From positions 210,001-242,000 of the forward strand of contig CP060232.1 of the NCBI GenBank assembly GCA_023898645.1: 32,000 bases of DNA, written 5' to 3'. The notes beneath the pieces were generated by a model, which saw only the letters and a program-made list of their open reading frames with translations, did not search any database and was not told the DNA's origin. This DNA comes from Candidatus Saccharimonadota bacterium (GTDB lineage Bacteria > Patescibacteriota > Saccharimonadia > Saccharimonadales > Saccharimonadaceae). How positions within the stretch are numbered: position 1 is the stretch's first letter; each line of letters begins with the position of its first letter. Of this stretch, positions 4,301 to 25,054 are shown piece by piece. The translations under genes were made by a program, and so were the position numbers.

Positions 4301-6917
4301 GAACATCGCCCAATCATCAGTCACGAGCCTGACGACAGACCTCGCCAACAGAGCCCAGATTACCGCCTATAACTCTGCAAATGAATTGAAAACAGTGACA
4401 CTCAACACCAACCCCGAGAGCGCTTGGTATACGTTTGAGCCGAATTATACTTCGGATCTCACATACAACTTGTTCCGCGGCGGTGCGGTAGACGTACAAA
4501 AGAACGGCTCTCCATTCAATACCTATGGTGCTGGCACTGGATTTTATAACGTATCTGGTGTTGGTTTGGCAGCAGATGACTGGTTTAAAGCAGATACATC
4601 GTTTTGTTTAGATAATCCGACTATTGCAACCGACACGTACGTTATTACCGTTGATATAGCTCCGTCTATCTTGCAGCGATATGGCTGCTACATGGGCATT
4701 GTGTTCCCTCACGGCTGGGGCACAAAGGATGTGCAAATAGAAGTATACAAGAGTGGCTGGTCAACACTTTATACTGTAACCGACAACTCTGACCCGGTGC
4801 ATCGTGTCTACTTTGGCGGTGACAGTACAACCTACACAAAGATACGCTACACCCTGGGGCGCCCATGGGGGGCACAGGTACGTATTAGTTCGCTATTTTC
4901 ATATGCTTACAACAGTACTGGTCGAGGCGAAGGCTATCTTACTCGTGGTGGTGGTGCTATTTACGGCAGCAACTCAACACCTATCGCATTTACTGCTACC
5001 GGTAGTGATACGAATATTAGCATCAATATCGTGCCAAAGGGAACGGGAACACTCAACCAGAACGGTGTTGCTGTCGCGACAATCAGCGGAACGCAAACGC
5101 TCACGAATAAGACTCTCACAAGCCCGAAGATTGGTGAGATTTACGGAAGTAATAATGGAACTACCGTTGCCCAATTTAAAGATGACACGACTGTAGCGAA
5201 TTACATAACGATAAAAAGCTATGCAACAGGTGGAACCCCAGCTATCCAGCTTGGCGCTAGCGCTGATACAAACGTCGGTCTAACTATAGTTCCAAAAGGG
5301 TCCGGAAAAGTTTCAATTTATTCCACGACGGGTCAAACACCGACACTTCAAGGTACAGGTGCTGACGCCAATCACAATTTGAACCTAACTTCCAAAGGCA
5401 CTGGCACTGTCCAGGCTAATGGCAACCCTGTCATCGCATCCGTTACTGCCATTCCTGCTGTTACCGGTACACCGTCAAGCAGCACTTTTCTTCGTGGAGA
5501 TGGTACTTGGTCCACGCCAACTGGCGGCAGTGGTGGCATGCTCGCTCCTTGTCAGGGTATGACAGTTGGTTCTGAGACATTTACTATTTCATCTGGCAGC
5601 GTCACACAAGTCTCTGGCACAACAATCAACGGCTACACGCCAGCCATTGGCGACCGTATTCTTATTATTAATGCTCCTGCCACGACCGGCGTCGGTTCGT
5701 CCTACGCTACGACATTCCAGCCAACCAACGGTATTTATGTGGTCACTGGAAATACCACAAACCTGACCGTCACTCGTGCGAGCGACATGTCTGGATCGAA
5801 CAAGCCAAATGGCATGAGTGTCCATGTGCAAAACGCCACGTGGCCAGGAGCGTGGACACTCTTCTTCGTTGAATATCCGAATGACGCCTCTGCATTCACC
5901 TGGGGAACGACTGGTATTTCATTCAAATATTCCGGTGGCATAGGTGGTCAGATGCAGCAAGTTTGGCTAGCAAATAACGGCCTTGGCTTTAACGTATGGA
6001 ACGGTACGGGCTGGACAAAATTCAGCGCTGCAACGAACGCTGGTACGCAAACGCTGACGCTACCGGCAACGGCCACATCTGACACGCTTGTCGGTCAGGC
6101 ATCGACAGACACATTGACGAATAAGACTTTGACATCTCCCAAGATTAATCAGGTTAATGATACGAATGGCAATACTTCGATTAATTTGACTGCTACTTCG
6201 AGTGCAGTAAATTACGTTAATATCACGAATACCGCTACTGGCAGCGGGCCGTCTGTCGCAGTAGCGGGTAGTGATACCAATATCGACTTGAACCTCGATA
6301 CAAAGGGTAGTGGCTCTGTGTATGCCAATGGCGATATTGTCATGACATCCCAGTCGCTGTACCCGCTTTTCATGGATTCTGGCCGGTTTGAACCGTTTCC
6401 GCAAATCTTGTGTCACAACAATTGGGCATTAAATTCAGGCGATATGCCTATGACGCTCTTTACTCCGACTGCAAACATGACCGTCAGCAATATTCTTTCT
6501 ATGACAGCTGGAGGCACCTCTTCGCAGTCAGGAGCGACTGCCTGTAAAGTCGCTATTTTCCGGGTGGATGATCTTGGTGTGTGGCCGGCCGATATGACAT
6601 GTATTGCTCGCTCAGCAAATAAGGCAGATAGGTGGAATGGTGCTCTGCTCGATACCGCTCCGATTGTCGACGACGGTGCAGCGTCGCCGAATTCTATATC
6701 ATCGGTAAACCTTACTGCCGGTCAGATGTACGCAGTTGGATTTATGTCGGTTGGTCATACGGGGAGCATACAACTCGCTGCTATGGGGGTTTATCGCCCG
6801 TGGACTCTTGAGCCGCACATTGGTTACTTTGGTGATGGTAGCTATTCGGATATTCCGGTAAATCTCACGGGTGGCTGGATAGAAGAGTGGACTTATGTGT
6901 GGTTTGGTCTGACGTAA
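1368..6917 (+). CDS. Giant (1849 aa) modular repeat protein, phage tail-fibre-like putative adhesin
   Basis: Strong SD (AGGAGGG, 7-nt spacing). No N-terminal signal peptide. 13 modules of G-[SA]-D-T-N-x-x-L-x-L-x-x-K-G-[TS]-G preceded by [AS]-V-N-Y. 7 linkers (A/T)(Q/D)TLTNKT at 1956, 2541, 2961, 3825, 4251, 5091 and 6105. FLRGDGTW at 5487-5510 and GDRILI...NGIYVV...RASD, which I recall as typical of tail-fibre proteins. Confidence 0.9.
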   Translation: MPTPQRLPIVNSDDGVWGDILRQYLAKEHFNDDTDNAINGGHQKITIQPGTAAAGTAPLKFTSGTLLTTPEAGAMEFAGDNYYLTDTSGPTRRKIAAYDDTSGATGDIYYRNSSGYFTRLGIGSTGNVLTVAGGIPSWSSSISNTSTITLKDTNFTLQDDGDTTKQLKFELTGIATGTTRTWSFPNADSAFVGTNTAQTLTNKTIQAPTITDSNGATVLNTSGSASAVNYITLSNSATTSSVGISATGSDTNLSLSVYTKGTGAVILRSAQNGIAFQAASPSASSVNYIQALGAVSGSSPTFQAVGSDTNINLVMSTKGTGVVLLYTGSNIAFRAWAPTSSVNYIQANGSTTGVVPSLTAGGTDTNVGINLIPKGTGTVQANGVDVVTTTDTQTLTNKTLTSPKVNTVYDTNGNTVLNFTANASAVNYVNIANRATTAGPIIKSAGSDTNIDLILSSKGTSFIYLTPGGSNALLLNTAASAVNYVQIVGQSTGNGPQILAMGADTNIHLTLSAKGTGVVKANGIEVATITGTQTLTNKTLTTPIIDQIKDTTTSNVVAEFTSEASAVNYLRLRSRAIGVAPSIVAVGAESNIGITFTPQGNGAVSIYAATGQTPTLQATGVDTNHDLKLLAKGSGTVRMGSSVTVPNGNLTTLYNTADETTNYEKVSIRYNSNVAEIGGYVAGTGVHRDLRIGINNSTYNPTNLYSYAQFSVSSTRIALRWETSASGLKMVSVGGGTDSLASASTIQNVLAIEPTVNQSGTAGYTGLLINPTETATGSGTKLLIDAQVGGVSKFSVDNTGVVTMAAVGTGAGSVVTVDGTQTLTNKTLTSPKIGTLYDNNGAIWLSVTPTASAVNYVSVINAATGGQPYVTAVGADTNISLSLRPKGTGSTIIRSGIDSASVAIFTGVTSGVNRIDFTGAATGNGVSIAANGSDTNVDLLLTGKGTGAVKANGVEVATISGTQTLTNKTISGASNTLSNIAQSSVTSLTTDLANRAQITAYNSANELKTVTLNTNPESAWYTFEPNYTSDLTYNLFRGGAVDVQKNGSPFNTYGAGTGFYNVSGVGLAADDWFKADTSFCLDNPTIATDTYVITVDIAPSILQRYGCYMGIVFPHGWGTKDVQIEVYKSGWSTLYTVTDNSDPVHRVYFGGDSTTYTKIRYTLGRPWGAQVRISSLFSYAYNSTGRGEGYLTRGGGAIYGSNSTPIAFTATGSDTNISINIVPKGTGTLNQNGVAVATISGTQTLTNKTLTSPKIGEIYGSNNGTTVAQFKDDTTVANYITIKSYATGGTPAIQLGASADTNVGLTIVPKGSGKVSIYSTTGQTPTLQGTGADANHNLNLTSKGTGTVQANGNPVIASVTAIPAVTGTPSSSTFLRGDGTWSTPTGGSGGMLAPCQGMTVGSETFTISSGSVTQVSGTTINGYTPAIGDRILIINAPATTGVGSSYATTFQPTNGIYVVTGNTTNLTVTRASDMSGSNKPNGMSVHVQNATWPGAWTLFFVEYPNDASAFTWGTTGISFKYSGGIGGQMQQVWLANNGLGFNVWNGTGWTKFSAATNAGTQTLTLPATATSDTLVGQASTDTLTNKTLTSPKINQVNDTNGNTSINLTATSSAVNYVNITNTATGSGPSVAVAGSDTNIDLNLDTKGSGSVYANGDIVMTSQSLYPLFMDSGRFEPFPQILCHNNWALNSGDMPMTLFTPTANMTVSNILSMTAGGTSSQSGATACKVAIFRVDDLGVWPADMTCIARSANKADRWNGALLDTAPIVDDGAASPNSISSVNLTAGQMYAVGFMSVGHTGSIQLAAMGVYRPWTLEPHIGYFGDGSYSDIPVNLTGGWIEEWTYVWFGLT

Positions 6918-7081: not shown

Positions 7082-8998
<1,917 letters not shown>

Positions 8999-10684: not shown

Positions 10685-11077
10685 TCAGATGGAGCAAGTA
10701 ACGCTACTGACAGCGGTGTGGCTTGAGACAACAACGCCGTTGACTGAGATTTTGCACGTGTACGTGACAACGCCATAGACGGGGTTTGGGTTGGTCGGCT
10801 GTGCGCTCAGGTACAAGAAACCATAGGGGCTTCTATGCACGTAGAACCATTGATGCCACGGGGTTGCGTCTACGTTGAACCAGTCGCTAGCCACAACGTT
10901 GTCTCGATTAAACGAGATGATGGTTGACCGGTTAGTCTGCACGCCGTTTGTCGTCGCGGTTACGCTCAGGTCGATTCTCGACCCGGTGATTGGCGGTCCG
11001 TCTGCAGCTGCGCTGGGAGCGAGGCCGGCGGATAAGCCAAGAACAGCAAGTAGTGACACGAGCAATCTCTTAACCAT
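10685..11077 (-). CDS. Small secreted MmpS-like protein
   Basis: 130 aa. AGGAGA SD. Signal peptide MVKRLLVSLLAVLGLSAGLAPSAAA. C-terminal pattern PW...LSAQ...YTCKISVNGVVV...VTC parallels mycobacterial MmpS (LPW...LAQ...ITCRITVDGEV...TYC). Confidence 0.5.
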   Translation of the reverse strand: MVKRLLVSLLAVLGLSAGLAPSAAADGPPITGSRIDLSVTATTNGVQTNRSTIISFNRDNVVASDWFNVDATPWHQWFYVHRSPYGFLYLSAQPTNPNPVYGVVTYTCKISVNGVVVSSHTAVSSVTCSI

Positions 11078-11972: not shown

Positions 11973-12833
11973 TTAAAGAGCGACTATACGTTTATGGGCA
12001 GACTCCCACGGTGATTGTTTTGCTTCACCATCCGAGCGATAAAACATGGATTTAACCACGGCGCAAATACCAAGCAAAACGATATAGCCAAGTGAGGTTG
12101 GTATGAGCAACGCATAAAAAATTCTTTGACGAAATGAGAGGTGAGGGTAGTGTGTGATTGCAGCAACCATCCATAGCCAGAAGCAACTCAGACAGCCAAT
12201 GAGTAAAATTGGTTGGTAAAGAAAAAGAGCGAGAAAACAAGCGTATATCTGCGCAACGATGCACGCTACGAAAGCAAACCATCGAGTGATTGCGTACGTT
12301 TTCGTTCGCATGTTTTTATGATAACTTGGCCGTATTAGAATTGGGTTGAGCGGATGAGTGAGTGCAATGCCAAACCCGGCACGCGATGAAGCAAAAGGGG
12401 CGGCAGCAATGAGGCGATATGCGTGAAGCAACTGTCCGAAAGTATCTGGAAACTGGAGAACCGGCGATAGTTCAACGACGACGAGCGACCGGTCTTTTTC
12501 GAGCCGGTGAACTGCGTAATTTATCGCCGATTTTTCTAGAACGTAGTCAGACTTTAGTCTCAGTATGAGCTTGCCATTGATCGGTTGACTGAGTGGTTTT
12601 ATTTCAATTTTTCGATAATCGTTGTTCCATATACTTTCCATGCATTTGTTGGACGGCGTACCGTCGACATAGATCGATACGAGGGGGAGTTTTTTGAAAC
12701 GAATGCGCGGGCGGCTGCGTAATTGCGATTCAAGTCTTATTTTGCGAATGTCGTGAATTGTCATGCCTAGCAATGTCGCTCCGGTAACAAGAGCGAGTAT
12801 AAAACCGATGATAGTTATGACGATAAGCTCCAT
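11973..12833 (-). CDS. Polytopic membrane protein with a degenerate GT2-like cytoplasmic domain
   Basis: I prefer the Met at 12833 (MELIVITIIG...) because it gives a TAATG stop/start overlap with the sortase gene. One N-terminal TM, a ~170-aa soluble domain (LPLVSIYV...SIWNNDYRKIEI resembles a GT2 N-terminus but lacks DxD and QxxRW), and four Cys-rich C-terminal TMs. Confidence 0.6.
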   Translation of the reverse strand: MELIVITIIGFILALVTGATLLGMTIHDIRKIRLESQLRSRPRIRFKKLPLVSIYVDGTPSNKCMESIWNNDYRKIEIKPLSQPINGKLILRLKSDYVLEKSAINYAVHRLEKDRSLVVVELSPVLQFPDTFGQLLHAYRLIAAAPFASSRAGFGIALTHPLNPILIRPSYHKNMRTKTYAITRWFAFVACIVAQIYACFLALFLYQPILLIGCLSCFWLWMVAAITHYPHLSFRQRIFYALLIPTSLGYIVLLGICAVVKSMFYRSDGEAKQSPWESAHKRIVAL

Positions 12834-13435
12834 TACTGCACCTTTTGGAATGAAAAAATAAATTCTGTTCGCCACTCACTGAACGCGCCGGTGCACGTTT
12901 GTACAATGAGCCGCGGTGGACCAGACGCGACGTTACTTAATATGGAAGTATCGGTCGGATTTAAGTTGTGAACTGACTGCAGTACGTAAGTAAACACGTG
13001 TTTATTGTCTGTATGAATTTCGGCGACGCTACCTATTGGCGGATGGTTGGTGCCAATTCTTCCAAGTACCGGGTAGGTTCCGTGGCCGTATATAAATGTA
13101 GCGCCCCCTTGGTCGTTTGCCGGCATGGTTGATGTCGCGAATTCAGCATGAGTCGGGCTGAGCGTCCAAGTTTTGGAAGCCTCGTCATACCTGCCCTCGT
13201 CGATTTGTAAATCGATATTTCTTGCTGGTATGACGAGACGGATAGGCTCACCAGAAATTGTGTCTGGTACCACAATGACTGGTTTAGCTGGTTTTCGATA
13301 TGTTGGACTCGGTTTACTTATAGCCCATACTGGCGTACCAAATGTATGTGACGAGTACAGGACTATAGCAATCACTCCTATGGTTAAAAGATAGACGGAG
13401 GCTATGCTGCTATATAAATTGATTTTTTGCAGCAT
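12833..13435 (-). CDS. Sortase-family transpeptidase
   Basis: 200 aa. N-terminal TM anchor, LVIPARNIDLQI, catalytic His in FIYGHG, catalytic Cys in LIVQTCTG, downstream Arg. Confidence 0.8.
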   Translation of the reverse strand: MLQKINLYSSIASVYLLTIGVIAIVLYSSHTFGTPVWAISKPSPTYRKPAKPVIVVPDTISGEPIRLVIPARNIDLQIDEGRYDEASKTWTLSPTHAEFATSTMPANDQGGATFIYGHGTYPVLGRIGTNHPPIGSVAEIHTDNKHVFTYVLQSVHNLNPTDTSILSNVASGPPRLIVQTCTGAFSEWRTEFIFSFQKVQ

Positions 13436-13448
13436 GCTTCCGCTCCTC

Positions 13449-13979
13449 TTATTTCAATTTATAGTGACGAAACGCGATGATGCCTAGGCGCGTAGCAACG
13501 TAGGCTCCCGCGGCGGTCACTATGCCAGTAACTGCAATACTGAGTGGTGTATCGTTGGCTGTATATGGGAGTACTGATGGGGTAGTAGAGCCTGCGCCAC
13601 TAGGATTTTCAGGTGCGCTAGGTGTAGGTGTGGACGCTACACCTACGCCACCACCTCCATCGGCACCGTTACAGCTAGTACCGATGGTGACATTTTGGCC
13701 GTTGTCATTGACAACTGTACCTGTAGCCACGTTGCCACCTGTAGTATTGCCGCTCACGTCACCGCTGCCGCTAGACCCAGTCTGGTTGTTGACCGTACCT
13801 ACCCATAAATTGTTGTTACAGGTCACGTTGATGTTATTTACATCATTACAACTTACTGTGTTGTTTGAGTCAGGGCCGGTTAATGTGACTATACCGTCAC
13901 ACGTTGCCGCACTGGCAAAACTACCCATACATGCAGCACTTACTACTGCTGACGTTGCTATGTGGATGACCTTGTTCAT
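13449..13979 (-). CDS. Secreted Asn/Gly-rich single-repeat protein with LPYTA sorting signal (putative sortase substrate)
   Basis: 176 aa. AGGAGA SD, signal peptide, TGPDSNN...SGDVSGNTTGGNVATG repeat core, Pro/Ser linker. C-terminus is LPYTA (13557-13571), then a hydrophobic helix and an RHYKLK tail. Confidence 0.8.
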   Translation of the reverse strand: MNKVIHIATSAVVSAACMGSFASAATCDGIVTLTGPDSNNTVSCNDVNNINVTCNNNLWVGTVNNQTGSSGSGDVSGNTTGGNVATGTVVNDNGQNVTIGTSCNGADGGGGVGVASTPTPSAPENPSGAGSTTPSVLPYTANDTPLSIAVTGIVTAAGAYVATRLGIIAFRHYKLK

Positions 13980-14204
13980 TCAAATCTCCTAATCGAAATT
14001 TAATTATTTCCTATTCCCATTTTATGCACATTAAAATATATATGACAATCATCAAAATTTATTATATTCATAAGCAGGTTGATTTTTAAGGGGGAAAATG
14101 GGATAAGTGTAATTTTTTTAACAAAATAATATTCAAACTCTCACTACACTGAAAGGAATCAATCGCGCACATTCTAAGGAAAATCAGGGAGGAAATTACA
14201 TACA

Positions 14205-14705
14205 ATGAGAGGTTATTTTGTGTCAGTCGTCAGGTTTTTAACCAAGTCGGTTCCGTATATTCCTAATTCTAGAAGGTTCATCTCGCGGCACCGCGCCTTT
14301 GTATTTATCATGGCTGCGACGCTACTAGTAGTTACAACTACGGCACTGCTTACTACAAAACACTTTGTGACTTCGAATACGTCGAGTGCTGCAAATGATA
14401 GCCAGCTTTCTCCAGGCTCGAGTACATCTAGTAGTACACCTGGTGTACATGCGTCTCAGCAGATCACTAATATAGTTTCACCGTCAGGAGGTTCCATGAG
14501 TACGAATATTCAGGTAAATGGCAAGCAGATCAAAGTCCCAGAAAATGGGTCGATGCACAAGACTATTTATTCCGACGATGGAAGTAAGACTGATATTAAT
14601 GTGTCAACAAGCGGAAACGCGACTAATTCGAATATTTATACGTCGTCATCGAATGTACAGGTAACAACTAATCCGGAGGACTTGCAAGCGGGGTCGGGTA
14701 ATTAG
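14205..14705 (+). CDS. N-terminally membrane-anchored Ser/Thr-rich protein, hypothetical
   Basis: 166 aa. TM FVFIMAATLLVVTTTALLTT, then an S/T/N-rich ectodomain. The start is uncertain, with a GTG at 14220 as an alternative. Confidence 0.55.
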   Translation: MRGYFVSVVRFLTKSVPYIPNSRRFISRHRAFVFIMAATLLVVTTTALLTTKHFVTSNTSSAANDSQLSPGSSTSSSTPGVHASQQITNIVSPSGGSMSTNIQVNGKQIKVPENGSMHKTIYSDDGSKTDINVSTSGNATNSNIYTSSSNVQVTTNPEDLQAGSGN

Positions 14706-14718
14706 GTGAGTGGTCAGT

Positions 14719-14753
14719 CGATTCCGACAGCAGGCTGTCTGCAGTCGGAATCG
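14719..14753 (+). promoter_or_regulatory. Strong intercistronic RNA hairpin upstream of the 14803 gene
   Basis: CGATTCCGAC (14719-14728) pairs perfectly with GTCGGAATCG (14744-14753), and 4 inner base pairs extend the stem. No T-run follows. Confidence 0.65.
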
Positions 14754-14802
14754 GGCGAACACCCGAAGTCAAAATCCATTAATAACAATAAGGAGGGACA
14801 AA

Positions 14803-15393
14803 ATGAAAATAGCAAGGTCAGCAGGTGCGGTAGTGACGTCGCTCGGTCTAGTGGTGGGACTTTCCGGGTTCGCCGGTGCGACTGCAGGAACGATCGGCTA
14901 CACAGGCCCATCGTCAAATAACCAAATATCTTCGTATTTAAACAACAATGCGAATTTAAACAACAACAACAATTTAAACGCGAACAACCTGAATAATCAG
15001 AACGCGCATTCCGGTTTTGCAAACGTTTCTGGTAATACGTTTGGCGGTACGGCTCAGACCGGACCAGCAAGCAACTTCAATAGTTCGAACGTTTCTGCAA
15101 ATGTCAGCAATGCTGGTGCAGGTTATGGCGGCTGGTTCGCTGGTGCCGCTGCGGCAAACAGCGTGGCCAATATCAATACGACTGGCCCTTACTCGAACAA
15201 TCAGGTTCAGTTCAGCACGAACAACAACCTGAATGTAAATAACAATAATAACTTCAATATCACAAACACGAATAACCAGAATGCTCAGTCTGGTAGCGCA
15301 AGCGTGGACTGCAACACGACTGGTGGTTCTGCCATCACTGGCGCAGCAACCAATACGAACACACAAACAGTTAACCTGAGCGTTAACAACTAG
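14803..15393 (+). CDS. Secreted Asn-rich two-repeat protein (candidate free fibre subunit)
   Basis: I prefer ATG 14803 (AAGGAGGG SD at 14790-14797) over the track start at 14710. Signal peptide MKIARSAGAVVTSLGLVVGLSGFAGA. Two ~73-aa repeats (14893-15114 and 15172-15390), each TGP-x-SNNQ...NNNNN...NNQNA-x-SG-x-A-x-V-x-x-NT-x-GG-x-A-x-TG. No C-terminal anchor. Confidence 0.8.
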   Translation: MKIARSAGAVVTSLGLVVGLSGFAGATAGTIGYTGPSSNNQISSYLNNNANLNNNNNLNANNLNNQNAHSGFANVSGNTFGGTAQTGPASNFNSSNVSANVSNAGAGYGGWFAGAAAANSVANINTTGPYSNNQVQFSTNNNLNVNNNNNFNITNTNNQNAQSGSASVDCNTTGGSAITGAATNTNTQTVNLSVNN

Positions 15394-15410
15394 TACGGGT
15401 GAGCCGACAT

Positions 15411-15449
15411 GGGGGAGTGCGTTAACTCCCCCGCCAGAAATTATTTTTC
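15411..15449 (+). terminator. Hairpin, possible partial terminator or attenuator after the 14803..15393 gene
   Basis: GGGGGAGT-GCGTTA-ACTCCCCC 8-bp stem (15411-15432). A T5 run occurs only 12 nt downstream, so this is non-canonical. Confidence 0.45.
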
Positions 15450-15483
15450 GGTAACGACAACAATATAAAGAAAGGAGGGGAAC

Positions 15484-17328
15484 GTGCAACGAGCTAGACA
15501 CATTATAAGGGGAGTAGTCATTTACCTGTTCGTGGTGATATTTGCGGGTGGCGCCCCTCTATCTACTATCGTTAGTGCTGACACTGCTCAAAACAAGAAG
15601 CACAACTATACATATAATACAGCCGATAAACACTGGAGTGATGAGGACTGGACGTGGAACAAGGCGACAGGCAAATACGTAAAGAACACGTCTGTATCAC
15701 CGAGCCCTTCTGATTCACCCGCTCCTACAAGCGACACGACGCCACCTGACACTACCGCGAAATCTTCGGACCCAGCTCCAGCGGGCGATGCTACTGTTAC
15801 TGACAGCACCAACGCGGCGGCAACGACAAACGACAACAATAATGTGGGCGTGACGAACAATCTGAACTCAAATACCGGTAGCGGTGATGCGGGTGTCGTC
15901 AAAAATACGACCGCCGGTGATGCGCAGACAGGTGACGCAAACGGTAGTACGACAATCATTAATAGCGTTCACTCGACGGTTGGTAACGGCGATACTTCTG
16001 GAATCGCGCACTTTACGATGAACCTTTATGGCGACATCACTGGCGACATTAGCATTGGTCCGAACATCAATAATGCAACGATTGATAAAAATACAAATCT
16101 TTCAAGCAAGACGAATGTTAACAACAACGACACACTTGTGAACAATCAGACGCTTAAGTCTACTAGCGGTAATGCGACGGTCAGCGGCAACACGACTGCC
16201 GGCAGTGCGAAGTCTGGCAATGCCAACACTGTCGCCGATGTGATGAACCTGATCGACACGATTATTGCAGCCAACAAATCATTCATTGGCACGGTTAACA
16301 TATACGGCAATTTAAACGGTGATATATTGGTCTCTCCTGACTTCATACCACAATTACTGGCAAGCAATGCTCAGGTGTATGGCAATTACAACCTAGACCA
16401 GACGGCAAACATTAATGACAACCAGTCGATAGTTAATAACGTCAAGTTAAACGCGACGAGTGGCACGGCTACGGTTAGTGGCAATACGACTGCCGGTACG
16501 GCAAAAAGCGGCAATGCTCAGACGAATCTAACAATTTTGAACTTGACCGGTCATCAGGTTGATGCCAAGAAAAGCCTACTTGTTTTCGTGAACGTGCTTG
16601 GTAAATGGGTAGGCATGATCGTCGACGCACCGGGTGCAACATCTGCGGCTCTCGGTAGCGGAGTAATCAGTGACACTACGAATATAAGTGACACCGCTAA
16701 TCTAAATAACAACGCGAAGATTATCAATAACCTTGATCTGTCATCAGCATCTGGCGATGCGACTGTGACGAAAAATACGACAGCTGGTGACGCCGTGACA
16801 GGCAATGCTACAGCTAGCGCTAACATTGCCAACATCAGCACGAGTCAGTTTAACCTGAGCGACTGGTTCGGCGTACTGTTTATCAATGTGTACGGTACGT
16901 GGATCGGTAGCTTCGGCATAAACACAGCGGCGGGCACCATCACGCCACTCAGCGGTGACGCTGTTCCGTCGGCTGGAGCCAGAATCGCTGCATTGCCAAC
17001 GGCCGGCCAACTGATGCATTTCGGATATACGCCGGCCACGCAAAGCCACGCGACAGTAGCGGGAGTAAGTGGTTCTGGCAGTAAGCCGACTGGCGGCAAG
17101 CCATTCACTCAGCTGAGCGGCCTACGTGCTCCATCTGAACAATTGAGGTTAATCCCAGTTGCACCAAAGCCTTTCGAAGATGTATTTTCAAACATCTTGA
17201 TGACTATCGGCTTCGGCGCCGCCGGCATATCAGGTGCACTTTGGCTCATTCGAAAGCGCCGGCCAACGTTGCCGACTAGGGCGCCGCACGGAGGAGGCTT
17301 GACCGAGGCAGTAAGCTCGCGAACATAA
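15484..17328 (+). CDS. Large (614 aa) four-module Asn/Gly/Thr-rich repeat protein with N-terminal signal/anchor and C-terminal TM
   Basis: GTG start after an AAGGAGGGG SD. Hydrophobic N-terminus, Pro/Ser/Thr linker, four ~97-aa modules (15829-16932) each containing SG-x-A-x-V-x-x-NTTAG-x-A-x-(T/S)G. C-terminal helix ILMTIGFGAAGISGALWLI followed by RKRR. Confidence 0.85.
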   Translation: MQRARHIIRGVVIYLFVVIFAGGAPLSTIVSADTAQNKKHNYTYNTADKHWSDEDWTWNKATGKYVKNTSVSPSPSDSPAPTSDTTPPDTTAKSSDPAPAGDATVTDSTNAAATTNDNNNVGVTNNLNSNTGSGDAGVVKNTTAGDAQTGDANGSTTIINSVHSTVGNGDTSGIAHFTMNLYGDITGDISIGPNINNATIDKNTNLSSKTNVNNNDTLVNNQTLKSTSGNATVSGNTTAGSAKSGNANTVADVMNLIDTIIAANKSFIGTVNIYGNLNGDILVSPDFIPQLLASNAQVYGNYNLDQTANINDNQSIVNNVKLNATSGTATVSGNTTAGTAKSGNAQTNLTILNLTGHQVDAKKSLLVFVNVLGKWVGMIVDAPGATSAALGSGVISDTTNISDTANLNNNAKIINNLDLSSASGDATVTKNTTAGDAVTGNATASANIANISTSQFNLSDWFGVLFINVYGTWIGSFGINTAAGTITPLSGDAVPSAGARIAALPTAGQLMHFGYTPATQSHATVAGVSGSGSKPTGGKPFTQLSGLRAPSEQLRLIPVAPKPFEDVFSNILMTIGFGAAGISGALWLIRKRRPTLPTRAPHGGGLTEAVSSRT

Positions 17329-17397: not shown

Positions 17398-18504
17398 ATG
17401 ACAAAACGTGATTATTACGAAGTTCTAGGCATCGGCAAAAGCGCTTCGGCCGATGAAATCAAAAAGGCTTTTCGCAAGGCTGCGGTTAAACATCACCCCG
17501 ACAAAGAGGGTGGTGATGAAACGAAATTCAAAGAAATAAACGAAGCCTACGAAGTGCTCAAAGACCAGCAGAAACGCCAACGGTATGACCAGTTCGGTCA
17601 TGCTGGAGTTGGTGGTTCAAGCGGCGGCGGTGGCGGAGGCGGTAATCCCTTTGAGGGCTTTGGTGGATTTGGCGGTCAAAACGTTCATTTTGATTTTGGT
17701 GATGGTGGTTTAGGCGATATGTTCGGTCAGTTCTTTGGGGGCGGGCAGCAGCAACAGCACGGCCCGCGACGCGGACGCGATGTAGAAACGAGCATGACGT
17801 TAACATTTGATGAAGCTGTATTTGGTGTTGAACGCGACGTCTCGCTCGACATGGAAGTCGAGTGCGAGCACTGCAAAGGCACGACGGTAGAGCCCGGTCA
17901 TAGTTTGAAGACTTGTCCGACATGTCAGGGTAGCGGTCAGCAGGTACGAATTGTTAATACGGTTTTTGGTCAGATCCAACAAGCAACAACTTGTGCGGAG
18001 TGTAAGGGCCGAGGTCAGATTCCAGAGAAAGTTTGTAGCGTCTGTCGTGGCAAAGGGACTCAACGCAGCAAAGAGCAGCTAACAATTAAGATTCCAGCTG
18101 GTATAGATGACGGTGCGACGATACGATTACAAGGTCACGGCGAGGCAGCTGGTGGCGGTGGTCGGGGCGATTTGTACGTACATATTAGAGTTAAGGCTCA
18201 CAAAAAGTTCACACGCGAAGCAGACATTATATTGTCCGAAGAGCATGTCGACATGGTAGAAGCCGCACTGGGTACAGAGATCGAAGTCGACACGGTAGAT
18301 GGTATGGTCCGTATGAAAGTGCCGTCTGGCACGCAGAGCGGAACAGATTTTAAACTTTCAGGTCACGGCGTACCGCACTTACGCGGTCAGTCGCGTGGAC
18401 CGCACATTGTAACGATTGTCGTAGATACTCCGACGAAGCTGTCAAAGCAGCAGAAAGAATTGTTGCAGCAATTCGGTGGCTCCAAAAAACGTGGCATATT
18501 TTAG
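17398..18504 (+). CDS. dnaJ: Molecular chaperone DnaJ (Hsp40)
   Basis: 368 aa. J-domain with HPD, G/F-rich region, four CxxCxGxG zinc-finger motifs ([32 protein letters not shown]). Confidence 0.97.
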
Positions 18505-18581: not shown

Positions 18582-18920
18582 ATGCTGAAAACAGGACCGC
18601 GGACGTTTGCGACTGTAGTTGTGACCGTCTTGGGCCTTTGGCTTTTTGGCTGGTTGTTCGGTTTTTTCGGTTTATTGATTGCATTGATCGTTGTTGGTGG
18701 AGTGACCATCGGAGCTATTTCATGGAAAGCCGGTGGTAGTAGCCAAAAAGAACATGACACATCAATGAATCGGCTTCCAGGAATCGATAAACCTGCCAGG
18801 GAATGGGCGTCTGATTTAGATGAATATGAATTTCCGCCACTTCCTGATATGCCAGAAGATTTTAAGATCAATGTGGCCGAAAATCAGCCCGAAGATACTC
18901 CCACCGAAACCCCACAGTAG
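18582..18920 (+). CDS. Small two-TM membrane protein with acidic C-terminal tail, hypothetical
   Basis: 112 aa. GAGG SD. Helices VVVTVLGLWLFGWLFGFFGLLIALIVVGGVTIGAI. Confidence 0.6.
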   Translation: MLKTGPRTFATVVVTVLGLWLFGWLFGFFGLLIALIVVGGVTIGAISWKAGGSSQKEHDTSMNRLPGIDKPAREWASDLDEYEFPPLPDMPEDFKINVAENQPEDTPTETPQ

Positions 18921-19032: not shown

Positions 19033-21702
19033 ATGTGGGATTCTATCCGATTGTCCACGGTCGGCGGTTTTACTTTACGCAAGATTGCCCTGCTGTTAAT
19101 GGCCGTATTGACGTCGGCCGTGTTCATGGCAGCCACGAATAGTCCCACTTCTTTTGCGGTAAACGCTAGCTGGAATGGCGATTCAATTAGCTATAACGGC
19201 AATACTTACGACAAGGTACAATCGCCGCCAACACTGCCTGGTGTTCCAATAAATTGGAATGTTTATTCTACGCAACCAACAGGTGGGCAGGATGTGTCAA
19301 TCATTGCGATTGATCCTAGCGCAGACACGACCAAAGACGTTTCCAACGCTAAGTCATTTACATACAGTTATGATGGTCAGATATACAGTAATCCGCGTCC
19401 GCCAAATGGAGACATGATTACCGTTAGTGCCAATACAAGTGGCGCCAATGGTGATGCAAGCTCTAGTAACAGCCAGAATCACACATCCTGCGCCGTGACT
19501 GGTGTAGGCTGGATTATTTGTAGCGTATCTCGATGGATTGCCGATGGCATGGATCATGTCTTCAATCTCATCAGTGGTTTTTTGACTGTCCGACCACTAA
19601 CTACAGATACAAATAGTGGCATGTATCAGGCGTGGACGATTGCTCGCAATCTGGCTAACACATCATTTATCGTGGCGTTTTTAGTGATTATTTATGCTCA
19701 GATATCTACGTATGGCATAAGTAATTACGAGCTTAAAAAGATGATTCCGCGCCTTATCATAGCCGCGATTTTAGTCAACGTGTCATATTACATTTGTACG
19801 GTAGCCGTAGACGTGTCGAATATTTTAGGCGACAGCGTACAGCAAGCATTGGTGCAAATTCGTCAATCATTACCGGCAGCGATGCCTGGTGGCAGTGTAT
19901 TGAACTGGAAGAGCATGACAGAGTTCCTGCTGAGCGGTGGTACGGTGGTGGGCGCCGGACTTGCCGGATTTGCTGCGTTTACTGGCGCAACCGTAGCTGG
20001 GTCTATGACGGGCTTGGTTATCTTGCTGTTTCCTATCTTGATTGCAGGCATCTTGAGTGTGCTCGTGGCGCTCATCGTATTGGCCGCACGACAGGCGCTG
20101 ATTACTGTGCTCGTTATTATTTCGCCACTAGCTTTTGTCGCCTTTTTGCTCCCTAACACTGAGAAGTTTTTTGAACGTTGGCGTAAATTGCTCACTACTT
20201 TGTTGTTGGTATTTCCGATGTTTTCGTTGTTGTACGGCGGTTCACAATTAGCGTCGTATATTGTCATTCAAAACACCGACCAAATCAGCGTTATGTTGTT
20301 AGCGATGTTTATACAAGTTGCACCGTTGGCGCTCACGCCGTTTTTGATACGCTTTAGCGGATCGCTCATGGGGCAGTTGGCAGGCATGCTCAACAAGCCA
20401 AGGAGCACACTGGTTGGACAGGCAAAGAACTTTGCGCAAGACCGCTCCAAGACTCAGGCTGCAAAGGGCCGAATTGCAGCTGCAAACGGCGGCGGTACGT
20501 ATTTCCAGCAACGTGCCCTCAGGCGATTTAATGATCAAAAAGATCGTGATGCATGGCAAAAGAGCGGCGAAGCGTATGCTGATGCCTCGTGGCACAACGA
20601 CAAGCGCTACCGTCGTCACCACACGATATCATCGACAGCGAATCTCATGAAAGAGAGTGGCGAGGCGATTGCTACTCGCGAGTTTGAACATGAGAAGGCG
20701 CACGATAGGCGACTACAGAAGTTTTCGGGAGTTAAGCGTTTGGAAGATTCTCGCGTTAAGCAATTGCAGGCTGCCGACAATGCTCGCTGGGAAGAAGCCG
20801 TTACTGGCAAAGTGAATCCGAACGATGCTTCTCAGCCATATGCAGCTTACTCTCAAGCAGCGCATACGGTATTTAGAGAACAGCGTATTGCCGACAGTAA
20901 CGCCGCCCGAGCACAGGCCGTACAGCAGCGTGAGTACGCTAACGAACTAACTTCAAACGTTGCATTGCAGCAATTAGCCGGCGGCAGTATAGACAAACTT
21001 GGTGCAGTTAAGGTCAAGGCGCAAGCAATGAGTGAAGTAATTCAAGCCAGTCAGCAAAATGTCGAGTCCATCAAAACCGCGTCTCATGTGAAAGCTGGTG
21101 ACATCAATGAAATGCGTAAAGAATTCGACAAGGCGGTTAGAAGGCAGGACGTCGACTCGCTACGTGCCTACGCCGACATGCTGGGTAATTCCAAGGATCC
21201 GGGTATTAGAGAGTTACGTAAAGCGCTTAATGATCATCATGCCGATATCAAATCATCAGATATGCACGAGACATTTATGCACTTCCTTAGCAATAACGGA
21301 AATATTAATAACTCCGCCAAGGATATCGGCGATTATAGCCGTGACGTTGCAGCGGGCTACCGCAAACTGAGCGAAGTCAGTTCTAGCGCGAAGACGTGGA
21401 AAAACATGGATGCCAATCAGTTTGCCGCCCAGAAGGCATCTTCACAGGTGGAGGCGCTTAAAGCGAGGGACGACAATGGTAACTGGGCAATTTCGCGCAG
21501 TACGGCTGTCGACCTGATGAAGTCTGTATCTTGGGAAAACATTAAGACAGACATGAAGCCGTTGATACGGGCGCGTGCCGAGGGGCGCTTGGCCGTTAAT
21601 GTTCGTACGGGTGATCTTGATCCGCGTAGAATGGAACAGCGAGACGACACCATGAATCCGCCAGATCAACAAATTCCAGACTCTATGGTGCCACCAGAGT
21701 AG
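19033..21702 (+). CDS. Large polytopic membrane protein, VirB6/TrbL/TcpH-like (putative type IV secretion channel component)
   Basis: 889 aa. Signal-like N-terminus, ~150-aa extracytoplasmic domain with a Cys pair (SCAVTGVGWIICS), ~7 TM helices (approx 19645-20370), and a ~440-aa charged helical C-terminal domain. The call rests on architecture only. Confidence 0.4.
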   Translation: MWDSIRLSTVGGFTLRKIALLLMAVLTSAVFMAATNSPTSFAVNASWNGDSISYNGNTYDKVQSPPTLPGVPINWNVYSTQPTGGQDVSIIAIDPSADTTKDVSNAKSFTYSYDGQIYSNPRPPNGDMITVSANTSGANGDASSSNSQNHTSCAVTGVGWIICSVSRWIADGMDHVFNLISGFLTVRPLTTDTNSGMYQAWTIARNLANTSFIVAFLVIIYAQISTYGISNYELKKMIPRLIIAAILVNVSYYICTVAVDVSNILGDSVQQALVQIRQSLPAAMPGGSVLNWKSMTEFLLSGGTVVGAGLAGFAAFTGATVAGSMTGLVILLFPILIAGILSVLVALIVLAARQALITVLVIISPLAFVAFLLPNTEKFFERWRKLLTTLLLVFPMFSLLYGGSQLASYIVIQNTDQISVMLLAMFIQVAPLALTPFLIRFSGSLMGQLAGMLNKPRSTLVGQAKNFAQDRSKTQAAKGRIAAANGGGTYFQQRALRRFNDQKDRDAWQKSGEAYADASWHNDKRYRRHHTISSTANLMKESGEAIATREFEHEKAHDRRLQKFSGVKRLEDSRVKQLQAADNARWEEAVTGKVNPNDASQPYAAYSQAAHTVFREQRIADSNAARAQAVQQREYANELTSNVALQQLAGGSIDKLGAVKVKAQAMSEVIQASQQNVESIKTASHVKAGDINEMRKEFDKAVRRQDVDSLRAYADMLGNSKDPGIRELRKALNDHHADIKSSDMHETFMHFLSNNGNINNSAKDIGDYSRDVAAGYRKLSEVSSSAKTWKNMDANQFAAQKASSQVEALKARDDNGNWAISRSTAVDLMKSVSWENIKTDMKPLIRARAEGRLAVNVRTGDLDPRRMEQRDDTMNPPDQQIPDSMVPPE

Positions 21703-21732: not shown

Positions 21733-22194
21733 ATGAATATACACTCTGATGGTATGAAAAACGGTAGTCAGCAACTTGTGTTTGGCTCGTTTGAACCGGT
21801 GGTGCTACCGGGATTTTCGCCAGACACATTTATTGCCAAGATCGACACTGGTGCGTTCTCTGGCGCAATCCACTGCTCGCTACTTCGTGAAGTTAAAGTT
21901 GGTAGCCACACAGTTTTGCACTACCGTCCGTTAACATGCAAAAAGACATTAAAAACCGAAAACTACACTCGCAAATACGTACGTAGTTCGACTGGTCATC
22001 GAGTTAGCCGCTATCTGATAGAGACTGACATTGTGGTTCAGGGCAAGACATATAAAGTAAAAATCGGGTTATCGAATCGGGCCGACATGCAGTACGAAAT
22101 ACTTATAGGCCGACGCTTCTTGCGAGAAAACGGGATTATAGTAGACGTGCGTGAAAACAGAGAACTTGATAAAGAGGAACAGTCACAATTATGA
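21733..22194 (+). CDS. RimK-associated retropepsin-like aspartic protease (ATP-dependent zinc protease / DUF785 family)
   Basis: 153 aa. KIDTGA (D-T-G-A) motif and ILIGRRFL C-terminal motif. 4-nt ATGA overlap with rimK. Confidence 0.8.
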   Translation: MNIHSDGMKNGSQQLVFGSFEPVVLPGFSPDTFIAKIDTGAFSGAIHCSLLREVKVGSHTVLHYRPLTCKKTLKTENYTRKYVRSSTGHRVSRYLIETDIVVQGKTYKVKIGLSNRADMQYEILIGRRFLRENGIIVDVRENRELDKEEQSQL

Positions 22195-23102
22195 AAATCG
22201 CAATTTTATCTAACGGAAACGGCAATTATTCGACCAAACGATTGGTTGAGGTTGCTCGCGCCCGTGGTCACGAAGTTAAAGTAATTAAATATCGTGATTG
22301 TTATGCTTCTATAGAAAAAAATAATCCTACTGTTAGTTATCGAGGTAATGACTTGGGTGGATTTGATGCAGTGATTCCACGGATTTCTGCCAGCATGACA
22401 CGGTACGGCTCGGCAATTGTTCGTCAGCTCGAAATGCAGGGCGTATACAGCGTGTCGAGTTCAATCGCGATTGTTCGTGCGCGCGACAAATTACGTAGTT
22501 TGCAACTACTCGCCAAGGCCGGAGTGGGTATTCCGAAAACTGTCGTCTCACGAAACTCAACTGACATAGACGACTTGCTCGACAAACTTGGCGGTACGCC
22601 GGTAATCATCAAGCTTGCTCGTGGTACTCATGGCAACGGCGTGGTCTTAGCAGAAAGCAAGAAGGCAGCTAAGTCAGTATTGCAGGCATTTTATCTGACT
22701 AACGAAGACGGTACGAATATTTTGTTGCAAGAGTTTATCAAAGAATCGGCCGGTACGGACATTCGTGCTTTTGTAGTGGGTGGACGTGTCGTTGCAAGTA
22801 TGCAGCGTCGCAGTTTGGACGATGATTTTCGTTCGAATCTTCACAAGGGCGGTGAGGGTACTCCGGTAAAATTGACGGATGAAGAACGCAAGACTGCTAT
22901 AAAGGCGGCGAGAGCGCTCGGATTAAACGTTGCCGGTGTCGATTTAATGCGTAGTGAACGAGGACCGCTTGTACTTGAAGTAAATGCGAGCCCAGGCTTT
23001 GGCGTCGAAAAGGTAACTAGTCGCGACGTCGCGACGGCAATTATTGAATATGTAGAAATGAACGCCAAGCGCCGCAACAAAAAGGACAAAGTAGGGGCAT
23101 AG
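22191..23102 (+). CDS. rimK: Ribosomal protein S6 L-glutamate ligase RimK (ATP-grasp)
   Basis: 303 aa. MKIAILS..., ATP-grasp motifs (PVIIKLARGTHGNGV, DIRAFVVGGRVVA, VAGVDLMRS...VLEVNASPG). Confidence 0.9.
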   Translation: MKIAILSNGNGNYSTKRLVEVARARGHEVKVIKYRDCYASIEKNNPTVSYRGNDLGGFDAVIPRISASMTRYGSAIVRQLEMQGVYSVSSSIAIVRARDKLRSLQLLAKAGVGIPKTVVSRNSTDIDDLLDKLGGTPVIIKLARGTHGNGVVLAESKKAAKSVLQAFYLTNEDGTNILLQEFIKESAGTDIRAFVVGGRVVASMQRRSLDDDFRSNLHKGGEGTPVKLTDEERKTAIKAARALGLNVAGVDLMRSERGPLVLEVNASPGFGVEKVTSRDVATAIIEYVEMNAKRRNKKDKVGA

Positions 23103-23618: not shown

Positions 23619-24092
23619 ATGAGCATCGTCTTAGTTCTCATTATAATCATCGCGATACTTTTTGCTTTTACATATGTGACACGTCGACGATTTGGCGTAC
23701 TTGGTCTGGCGCTTTGTGCTGGCTATCTGCTTTCGACCATGTGGACGTCGCAGGTGACACCGTGGGTCGAAGGAGCTGGTTTTGATTTATTAACCCCTCC
23801 ACTTTCAAGTGTAGTCGCCGCCACCCTTGTATTGCTGCCACCGGTAGTTTTGCTTTTGTTTGGCGGGCCTACATATAATGGTCCGTTTCTTCGGCTTATC
23901 GGCGCCGTGGCATTTTCTTTACTGGCAACGTCTTTCTTGCTCGGACCGCTCGGTAGCAGTTTGACGCTCGACGACACTGGCATGAAAATTTACATGTTTC
24001 TGGTTAGTAACAAGTCGATTATTATCACGGCAACAATTGGGTATGCGCTGTACGACATCGCAATTATGCGAACACCAAAGAAAAAGGGTTAG
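23619..24092 (+). CDS. Polytopic membrane protein, hypothetical
   Basis: The track gives a TTG start at 23601. I prefer ATG 23619 (MSIVLVLIIII...) because TATAAT at 23607-23612 sits 6 nt upstream. 4-5 TM helices. Confidence 0.6.
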   Translation: MSIVLVLIIIIAILFAFTYVTRRRFGVLGLALCAGYLLSTMWTSQVTPWVEGAGFDLLTPPLSSVVAATLVLLPPVVLLLFGGPTYNGPFLRLIGAVAFSLLATSFLLGPLGSSLTLDDTGMKIYMFLVSNKSIIITATIGYALYDIAIMRTPKKKG

Positions 24093-25054
24093 TTTGCCGG
24101 GTTGGCGTCGTTCATTAGTCGGTCAAGCATAGCCATGCGTATATAAAGACCATTGCCGGCTTGACGGAAATATTTTGCTCGTGGGTCATCGTCGACTTCG
24201 GTTGAGATTTCGTCAACACGGGGAAGTGGGTGCATGATTATGGCGTGTTCGGGCAATACGTCAAGCGCGGCTGCCCCTATGCGGAATTGCGCCTGCTTGA
24301 GACTAAGTTCTTGTTGGCTTAACTCGATGCCGCTACTCTTAAGGCGTTCTAGTTGCAAACGAGTCCAGTATACAACGTCAGCGTCTCTGAACGCGTCATA
24401 CATTTCTGCTGTTTCTTGGTGCGCGACGCCAGCTTCGTCAAGCCTTGCCTTGATGTCTTTGCCTATCTGAAGTTCGGGTGTGGAAACGAATGTTATACGG
24501 TTTCCGTGATATTTCGAAAGTAAAACGGCAAGTGATCGTGCGGTTCGTCCTTGAAGTAAATCGCCGCCTATGACCACGTTGAGATTGTCCAGCTTGCCAA
24601 GTTCAGAGTTGATCGTGTACATGTCGAGTACTGCTTGGGTCGGGTGTTCACCTTTGCCGTCGCCACCGTTCAAGATGGGGACGTTGCTTACACTGGCAGC
24701 ACGGTCGGCATGACCTTCTTCTTTGGTGCGCAGACTAATGGCATCTATGCCGTATTCGTTGAAAACACGTACCGTGTCTTCAATAGTTTCACCTTTTGCC
24801 GCCGAAGAAAACTCAGCTGCGTTTTCGGTTCCGATGACTTCCATGCCTAGTTTTTTGGCGGCGATTTCAAAACTAAATCGTGTACGAGTGGACGGTTCAT
24901 AAAACATAGACAACATCATGCGGCCAAAATGACGGCGCATTGTATCTCGCTTTGTTTCGATACTGTTATCGTTTTGTCTGAAGTAGTCGGCTCCTTCAAA
25001 CAGCTCGGATAACTGGGCCGTGTCAAATTGCTCGGCGCGTAAAATGTGTCGCAT
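24089..25054 (-). CDS. pyrB: Aspartate carbamoyltransferase catalytic subunit
   Basis: 321 aa. GGAGGA SD. STRTR, HPTQ and HPLPR motifs; HPLPR rather than HCLP distinguishes ATCase from OTCase. Confidence 0.9.
   Translation of the reverse strand: MRHILRAEQFDTAQLSELFEGADYFRQNDNSIETKRDTMRRHFGRMMLSMFYEPSTRTRFSFEIAAKKLGMEVIGTENAAEFSSAAKGETIEDTVRVFNEYGIDAISLRTKEEGHADRAASVSNVPILNGGDGKGEHPTQAVLDMYTINSELGKLDNLNVVIGGDLLQGRTARSLAVLLSKYHGNRITFVSTPELQIGKDIKARLDEAGVAHQETAEMYDAFRDADVVYWTRLQLERLKSSGIELSQQELSLKQAQFRIGAAALDVLPEHAIIMHPLPRVDEISTEVDDDPRAKYFRQAGNGLYIRMAMLDRLMNDANPAN

Follow-up and report, generated by a model that had tools for sequence, protein, structure and literature searches.

Asparagine-rich repeat proteins in secreted and anchored forms: a conserved gene cluster of Saccharibacteria and a candidate system for cell-surface assembly

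The gene cluster described here lies in a stretch of 32,000 nt from a Candidatus Saccharimonadota bacterium (assembly GCA_023898645.1, contig CP060232.1, positions 210,001 to 242,000), which we refer to as the window and whose own numbering is used throughout. At positions 11973-17328 of the window, six open reading frames (ORFs) are arranged in two divergent operons, and three of them encode proteins that share one repeat unit: E196, predicted to be secreted freely, F614, predicted to be held in the membrane, and A176, predicted to be joined to the cell wall. The cluster represents a real, conserved system that is built on a previously undescribed protein family. Its genes and other features are as follows.

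11973-12833, minus strand: C286, polytopic membrane protein, third gene of the sortase operon (ORF list, hydrophobic segments)
12833-13435, minus strand: divergent sortase with an N-terminal membrane anchor (200 aa, Pfam Sortase match)
13449-13979, minus strand: A176, predicted wall-anchored paralogue (signal peptide, one unit, LPYTA sorting signal)
13980-14204, no strand: AT-rich divergent control region between both operons (225 bp, GC 0.28)
14205-14705, plus strand: D166, first gene of the D-E-F operon, with an N-terminal membrane anchor (ORF list, hydrophobicity)
14710-14766, plus strand: conserved, structured leader RNA of the E gene (alignment, covariation)
14803-15393, plus strand: E196, free secreted paralogue and proposed major subunit (signal peptide and two units)
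15411-15449, plus strand: GC-rich hairpin and AT-rich tail directly 3' of the E stop codon (folding, conserved position)
15484-17328, plus strand: F614, membrane-anchored paralogue with a GTG start (signal peptide, four units, C-terminal helix)

This layout had been recognized in a previous sequence-only reading of the same DNA, and its description of two facing operons with six ORFs, separated by a 225-bp AT-rich spacer, was found again in the ORF list and in the base composition. The longest ORF for the E gene covers 14710-15393, while the ATG at 14803 yields the form of 196 aa; gene calls made independently on public contigs gave identical products of 196 and 614 aa. The ORF of the membrane protein was listed as 11973-12875 on the minus strand. 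Because the sortase stop codon and the next ATG overlap as TAATG, a coupling that had also been noted before and can be read directly in the sequence, we take this protein to be of 286 aa, starting from the ATG at 12833. Matches to the promoter consensus gave two promoter-like sites for the minus operon in the control region, at 14089-14061 and 14048-14019; overall, the consensus scan for promoters and terminators showed no enrichment over shuffled sequences.

To judge from their sequences, A176, E196 and F614 are true paralogues that share one unit. The alignment of family profiles by hhalign related the E family to the F family with a probability of 98.3 (E 1.3e-14) and A176 to the E family with a probability of 98 (E 2.3e-13). 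When a hidden Markov model (HMM) of the E family was run against all six-frame ORFs of the window, it matched none but the ORFs of these three proteins (E 3.5e-68, 3.7e-23 and 5.7e-18). Both results agree with the paralogy that had been proposed for the proteins of 176, 196 and 614 aa.

The unit is placed in a different context in each of the three proteins. In A176, a signal peptide is followed by one unit, a Gly/Pro/Thr-rich linker, LPYTA, a hydrophobic segment and the tail RHYKLK, which confirms the sorting signal reported earlier for this protein. E196 consists of a signal peptide and two units joined by a Gly/Ala linker and nothing more, with neither an anchor nor a sorting signal. It starts a few residues past the predicted cleavage site of the signal peptide and ends at the invariant last Asn of the second unit, and the E gene has no capping sequence. 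The mature protein contains 28.8% Asn, 78% of its residues are N, Q, S, T, G or A, and only one residue is charged. The N-terminal part of F614 comprises a signal peptide, a small Trp/Tyr-rich domain and a Pro/Ser/Thr linker; four units follow, each extended by a hydrophobic hairpin (e.g. FIGTVNIYGNLNGDI), and the C-terminal part contains about 85 residues that are disordered or of low confidence, a helix at 567-591 in the AlphaFold model and the sequence RKRR. The repeats of F614 had been described correctly before, but its C-terminal membrane helix anchor had been overlooked. One module is thus predicted to occur in three forms, namely free, membrane-tethered and wall-tethered.

The sortase passed the threshold of Pfam PF04203 (33.6 bits against a cut-off of 26.6, E 3.8e-8), which supports its earlier assignment in the minus operon, whereas its match to the NCBIfam model sortase_fam fell below the cut-off of that model. 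The enzyme is very divergent, since its best sequence match in the PDB reached only E 0.24. Putative catalytic residues could be read as the His in FIYGHG and the Cys in VQTCTG, and the adjoining candidate substrate has an LPXTG-like motif, a hydrophobic segment and a basic tail. An adjacent, conserved sortase with such a substrate could be taken to indicate a covalent pilus of the SpaA type, polymerized by the sortase from the repeat proteins as pilins. However, there is no lysine in mature A176 or mature E196 and hence no nucleophile for a pilin motif, which in our view rules out pilus-type covalent polymerization by the sortase. Moreover, a sorting signal is lacking in E196, Pfam and NCBIfam detected no pilin domain, of the Cna type or otherwise, the cluster holds a single sortase, and in other CPR (candidate phyla radiation) lineages the E-F pair occurs without sortase. 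A pilus of this type is therefore very improbable.

The other two proteins of the cluster matched no family in the Pfam and NCBIfam scans. C286 has three to four hydrophobic segments, at residues 3-25, 187-205 and 242-264 and at one weaker site. A decayed glycosyltransferase of family 2 (GT2) with membrane helices was considered for C286 after inspection of residues 50-120, approximately, by eye. We make no claim of this identity because the sole computed support was an NCBIfam match of E 0.2 to the model of an XrtG-associated glycosyltransferase. D166 is composed of an N-terminal membrane anchor, a Ser/Thr-rich stretch and a small C-terminal beta region.

The repeat unit itself is the size of a domain. 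A regular-expression search with the core motif quoted in the sequence-only reading returned one copy in A176, two in E196 and four in F614, with exactly the sequences quoted there, and TGP-x-SNN was seen to start each repeat of both small proteins. The spacing from motif to motif is 93-98 residues, and it follows that the repeat is a domain-sized unit and not a curlin coil of about 20 residues. In the single-unit HMM there are 77 match columns, and the linker between units is about 17 residues long and rich in Gly, Ala and Ser; the curlin-like periodicity suggested before was therefore abandoned. The consensus of the unit reads I-x2-TGP-x-S-x-N-x-I ... V-x-N-x-N-x-V-x-V-x-N-x-N-x-Q-x-A-x-SG-x-A-x-V-x2-NTTGG-x-A-x-SG-x-A-x-N-x-N-x-T-x3-V-x-V-x-N. 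Each second residue is conserved while the intervening residues are free; one face of the unit is fixed, and the other varies strongly from lineage to lineage.

Covariation within the unit was calculated by mean-field direct coupling analysis (DCA) on 672 distinct units with an effective number (Neff) of 608. The couplings formed an antiparallel ladder at i+j=105 (28-77, 32-73, 34-71, 38-67, 40-65, 42-63 and 47-58), together with a tight turn at 49-55 and a small N-terminal hairpin (3-16, 5-14 and 8-12); the TGP turn was coupled to the NTT turn and to both SG motifs. The ladder was confined to positions of the conserved face, mostly with z values of 2-8, and all positions of the variable face had z below 1.4. 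Such a pattern would fit two strands that are packed via the conserved Asn/Val/Ala face, as in beta-arches and steric zippers. Neighbouring units of one protein also showed strong in-register coupling. In the E196 family the mean identity was 54% between units within one protein and 43% between orthologous units, and this difference points to gene conversion, co-evolution of stacked units, or both.

No described family accounts for these proteins. In the Pfam and NCBIfam scans of all six cluster proteins only the sortase was matched, eight distant relatives matched no family in the two databases, and sequence searches of the PDB with E196 and F614 gave nothing meaningful, in accordance with the earlier remark that the proteins were not recognized as a named family. 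At E values up to 1, no Pfam match to Curlin_rpt or chaplin was found for A176, E196, F614 or the eight distant relatives. A characterized family of non-fibre function, the kind of match that could have explained the repeats otherwise, was not confidently hit in Pfam, NCBIfam, the PDB or Foldseek.

The family itself is well represented. More than 1,597 full-length homologues of F614, about 600 aa long, were found. None of them has a Pfam domain, the identities among the matches listed are 44-86%, and the homologues labelled with a taxon come mostly from metagenome-assembled genomes (MAGs) of Saccharibacteria. For E196, a word-index search yielded 83 close relatives and a profile search 2,045 representative clusters at 50% identity, and the sequences inspected have 2 to 6 units each; over the family, the number of units per protein ranges from 1 to 8. 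Distant members were found in MAGs of Parcubacteria, Andersenbacteria and Woykebacteria. The repeat-protein family is a large one and appears to be confined to CPR lineages. A protein identical to F614 is labelled 'Candidatus Nomurabacteria bacterium' in NCBI (H6797_01045). Nearly all the taxon-labelled close relatives are from MAGs of Saccharibacteria or Saccharimonadales, and the locus L062, which has the same Nomurabacteria label, appears to belong to the same series of MAGs. In all probability, the label is an error.

Gene order was compared in 80 Saccharibacteria loci (L001-L080), in which sortase was sought within 6 kb. An E-type gene was located directly upstream of an F-type gene in at least 72 of the 80, and a D166-like gene directly upstream of E on the same strand in 55, mostly at a distance of about 100 nt. 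Sortase was present in 37 loci, and in all 37 a protein of 167-220 aa with exactly one unit and LPxT[SAG] was encoded directly upstream of it. The combination of a wall-anchored copy and a free secreted copy, which had been noticed in the window, is thus conserved. A C286 homologue followed the sortase in 31 of these 37 loci. The orientation of the A-sortase-C operon relative to D-E-F was divergent, co-directional or downstream, yet the two remained linked, and therefore the linkage has survived rearrangement.

Outside Saccharibacteria, one Parcubacteria-type locus encodes a protein of 376 aa (four units, ending at the last unit) followed by one of 1011 aa (eight units and a C-terminal membrane helix), and a second encodes a protein of 589 aa (six units) followed by one of 794 aa (six units and a membrane helix). 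Sortase was absent from both of these loci, which makes the pair of a secreted and a membrane-anchored protein the core of the system. In L083 and L084, both of them loci of the Parcubacteria type, the genes that precede the small gene have no obvious D166-like architecture, as judged by eye and not by alignment. The A-sortase-C operon is an addition of Saccharibacteria to the E-F core. The cluster had originally been regarded as centred on the sortase; the co-occurrence with sortase holds for the 37 Saccharibacteria loci but not for the Parcubacteria pairs, and the conserved centre is instead D-E-F and, above all, the E-F pair.

The E gene is bracketed by RNA structures on both sides. Its leader RNA consists of a variable stem with compensatory changes (double changes in 12 of the 16 pairs), followed by an invariant mini-hairpin, CGGG-YGAACA-CCCG. 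The covariation in the stem was 0.50, compared to 0.20 in shuffles (0 of 500) and 0.09-0.15 when the pairing was slid. In 927 kb of related sequence the leader motif occurred 40 times, each time just before the start codon of an E gene. In the D-E spacers of L001-L078, a 5' GUGGUC and the segment GGGCGAACA can pair with each other in several loci, and alternative folds of the leader are possible. On the 3' side, the E stop codon is followed by a GC-rich hairpin at 15411-15432 (GGGGGAGU/ACUCCCCC), for which we propose a role as a terminator, an attenuator or a stabilizer of the 3' end. A strong hairpin was present after the E stop in all of the 72 related loci compared, with unrelated stem sequences, and in 66 of the 72 its energy was -17 kcal/mol or below. 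In the same loci this value was reached in only 1.4% of random windows and, downstream of the F stop, in 16%. In one Parcubacteria locus, too, the small gene is followed by a very strong hairpin. Neither the leader RNA nor the 3' hairpin had a match in Rfam.

That the E gene is enclosed by a 5' leader and a 3' hairpin suggests that it encodes an abundant subunit. Strong Shine-Dalgarno sequences accompany these stem-loops, and the arrangement of the gene would resemble that of genes for major structural subunits. The papBA transcript is a comparable case.

Taking these results together, we tentatively suggest that the two operons form a system for assembly at the cell surface, built from the beta-repeat module, in which the anchored paralogues seed the non-covalent stacking of the secreted subunit; we hold this to be a reasonable possibility, if somewhat short of an even chance. 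E196, with its two bare units, would be exported by Sec in large amounts from an mRNA that is set apart by the structured leader and the 3' hairpin. The unit would bury its conserved Asn/Val/Ala face between two long strands, leaving hydrogen-bonding edges or faces open, and through these the units could stack non-covalently on like units. F614, with four units, a long stalk and a C-terminal membrane helix, would seed the growth and hold the polymer at the membrane. In Saccharibacteria, A176 with its one unit, joined to the wall by the dedicated sortase via LPYTA, may serve as a second seed or anchor, and D166 and C286 may be membrane-bound accessory factors. The product would be a surface fibre or a sheet. 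The analysis shows the paralogy, the signals for export and for anchoring, the synteny, the RNA structures and the register of the conserved face, and from these the polymerization, the seeding by anchored copies and the abundance of E196 are inferred. The pairing of secreted and anchored paralogues is kept across the CPR, as templated assembly predicts.

Several results weigh against such an assembly. The DCA pattern could also reflect an ordinary long beta-hairpin whose exposed face does not covary. The in-register coupling between units was dropped as a proof of stacking: units within one protein are more alike than orthologous ones, and gene conversion explains this likeness equally well. 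The AlphaFold model of the E196 monomer was all-beta but poor, with a pLDDT (predicted local distance difference test) of 42, and that of F614, also all-beta, was only moderate (57). Foldseek gave no significant match against the PDB and viral models. Within 6 kb, sortase is missing from about half of the loci. In the literature on Saccharibacteria and Patescibacteria, we found no paper mentioning the repeat-protein family; in a paper on an archaeal sheath, Patescibacteria are present in the reference list only. Finally, Pam pili, which are the filaments resolved to date on a cultured Saccharibacterium, consist of unrelated immunoglobulin (Ig)-like pilins (10.64898/2026.03.03.709456).

Two details of the models speak for the assembly. 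In F614, the pLDDT rose to 85-90 at all four motifs. The matches of Foldseek in the PDB, all of them non-significant (E 1.2-9.7, template modelling (TM) scores of about 0.05-0.1), were for F614 beta-solenoids or functional amyloids in seven of seven cases (CsgA 8c50, FapC 9nqd, SufB/SufD, Hbp, UpaB and a Caldicellulosiruptor adhesin), and for E196 in three of four (FapC twice and SufB/D).

The repeat proteins might, as an alternative, be binding modules that do not polymerize, such as adhesins or lectin-like proteins for polymers of the host surface, displayed on the wall, on the membrane and in free form. The small Trp/Tyr-rich N-terminal domain of F614, modelled confidently (pLDDT 82-88 over residues 41-70), is in favour of this, and the face of the unit that differs between lineages, the other being fixed, would suit the binding of lineage-specific ligands. 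In addition, Saccharibacteria (one cultured) require several surface adhesins for epibiotic growth (PMC10633639). However, a free secreted adhesin that has no anchor and no second domain offers no obvious way to keep cells together. A protein of one unit, or of two bare units, with almost no hydrophobic core is also unlikely to be a stable monomer, which agrees with the poor model of E196, and simple adhesins do not need the pairing of a bare secreted protein with an anchored one that is found across the CPR. We therefore regard binding modules as a rather unlikely explanation, though one to be taken seriously.

A two-dimensional lattice at the surface, like an S-layer (surface layer) or a rodlet coat, could also be formed, with E as the subunit and with F and A as ties to the membrane and the wall. 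By cryogenic transmission electron microscopy, CPR cells lack an outer membrane and carry a periodic surface layer with spacings of 3.8 and 10 nm, or of 3.2 nm (10.1101/2020.05.14.094862). The conservation of the E-F pair across CPR classes is what would be expected for a basic part of the envelope, and a coat would agree as well as a fibre with the features that point to high expression and with the anchored paralogues. We know of no identification of the proteins that make up the periodic layer. On the other hand, mature E is only about 17 kDa, far below the usual size of S-layer proteins; neither SLH nor another described wall-binding module of S-layers was found by the Pfam and NCBIfam scans; and a number of units that ranges from 1 to 8 would be awkward for a fixed lattice. 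The computed results suit a sheet and a fibre alike, and on the whole we consider the lattice to be not very likely.

The proposed assembly from a secreted and an anchored paralogue can be compared with several known systems. Chaplins of Streptomyces are similar in that one small domain occurs in sortase-anchored (ChpA-C) and free (ChpD-H) forms, as in A176 and E196, the anchored copies are expected to be the points from which a surface assembly grows, and the envelope is of the Gram-positive type in both. However, the sequences are unrelated, and no protein of the cluster matched the chaplin Pfam family (PF03777). The chaplin domain has about 40 hydrophobic residues, whereas the CPR unit has 77 residues, is polar and contains 29% Asn. 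The anchored copy of the CPR system, A176, has fewer units than free E196, and a membrane-anchored third paralogue is the more widely conserved partner. The chaplin-like logic proposed in the sequence-only reading is thus retained, with the LPYTA of A176, the unanchored E196 and the unit that they share, but membership in the chaplin family is not.

The likeness to CsgA/CsgB and FapC/FapB is in the imperfect repeats rich in Asn, Gln, Ser, Gly and Ala, in the pairing of a major secreted subunit with a paralogous cell-bound nucleator, and in the uncapped subunit; CsgA and FapC were also among the non-significant fold-search matches of E196 and F614. In contrast to curli, the CPR repeat proteins had no match to Curlin_rpt (PF07012), and their unit of 77 residues is far longer than the 19-23 residues of curlin. 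The probability by hhalign between the E family and E. coli CsgA, the sequence of which was entered by hand, was 4%. The resemblance to curlin-type repeats suggested in the earlier reading is thus not supported. The CPR system also differs from curli and Fap in having no outer membrane and no CsgG-type channel, and its anchoring would be by a membrane helix and a sortase. Signs of a possible amyloid character are only indirect, in the composition, the covariation of the conserved face and the non-significant Foldseek matches to CsgA and FapC.

In Bacillus, one operon similarly encodes TasA, the secreted main subunit of the fibre, and TapA, an accessory or anchor protein associated with the cell, and the envelope is of the Gram-positive type. 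TasA is a globular protein like Peptidase_M73 that assembles by donor-strand exchange. Its fold is unrelated, and no M73 match was found in the window. The Pam pili of Candidatus Mycosynbacter amalyticus are also CPR-specific filaments of secreted proteins that had previously not been annotated, and they have membrane-anchored accessory proteins with C-terminal helices (10.64898/2026.03.03.709456). Pam pilins are two-domain Ig-like proteins of 39-55 kDa that are joined by donor-strand exchange and have chaperone-like partners, and consist of an N-domain with a nine-strand beta-sandwich and a truncated Ig-like C-domain with the donor strand (10.64898/2026.03.03.709456). The CPR repeat proteins are set apart from them, by description and size, as Asn-rich proteins with no Ig-like domains and with a sortase partner.

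Since bacteria of the CPR spend their lives on other microbes, to which they are attached, it is at the surface that their biology takes place, and the majority of their surface proteins are still unnamed. We suggest that the repeat family is a good candidate for a surface fibre or layer of these very small bacteria. If its members polymerize, they would be candidate components of the periodic coat, or of additional filaments, seen on CPR cells and would provide a new, non-homologous case of surface assembly seeded by paralogues. A wider claim can be made, which we regard as unlikely and put forward as a speculation: the pair of a small secreted and a large anchored protein may build the periodic surface coat of the CPR, from Saccharibacteria to Parcubacteria, as a templated, cross-beta polymer with Asn ladders that resembles functional amyloid, is seeded by paralogues anchored at the membrane and the wall and has its supply of subunits set by the leader RNA. 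If this were true, it would add a new class of polymer to those known from bacterial surfaces, in a group that holds a large share of bacterial diversity. The family offers concrete targets in its 17-kDa protein, its sortase motif and its RNA motif.

The neighbourhood of the cluster showed some further features. The whole cluster is situated between dnaK (Hsp70, E 8e-262; 7082-8998) and dnaJ (17398-18504), and the adjacency of F to dnaJ was found again in 17 of the 80 related loci, which may be mere inheritance of the neighbourhood. A gene just outside the cluster, at 10685-11077 on the minus strand, encodes a protein of 130 aa that has a signal peptide and matched no family; it is conserved in one or more of the related loci, with 65% identity in L004. 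An ORF of 1849 aa at 1368-6917 on the plus strand has no Pfam domain. At 19033-21702 on the plus strand, preceded by a gene for a membrane protein of 112 aa (18582-18920), an 889-aa protein is encoded that has a signal-like N-terminus, a hydrophobic and apparently multi-pass middle and a long charged C-terminal part; it matched nothing in Pfam or NCBIfam and is kept downstream of dnaJ in eight related loci, at identities of 64% or less. In the Parcubacteria locus L084, a gene for a protein of 407 aa (1373-2596) with a faint match to Peptidase_M73 (TasA/camelysin) lies near the homologous pair, and the same neighbourhood includes LTD, HemolysinCabind and Peptidase_S8 proteins and a gene for a coupling protein of a type IV secretion system. 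Other annotated neighbours in the window are a RimB-like/RimK pair at 21733-23102, an ornithine carbamoyltransferase at 24089-25054 and a ComEC-type competence protein at 27359-28816.

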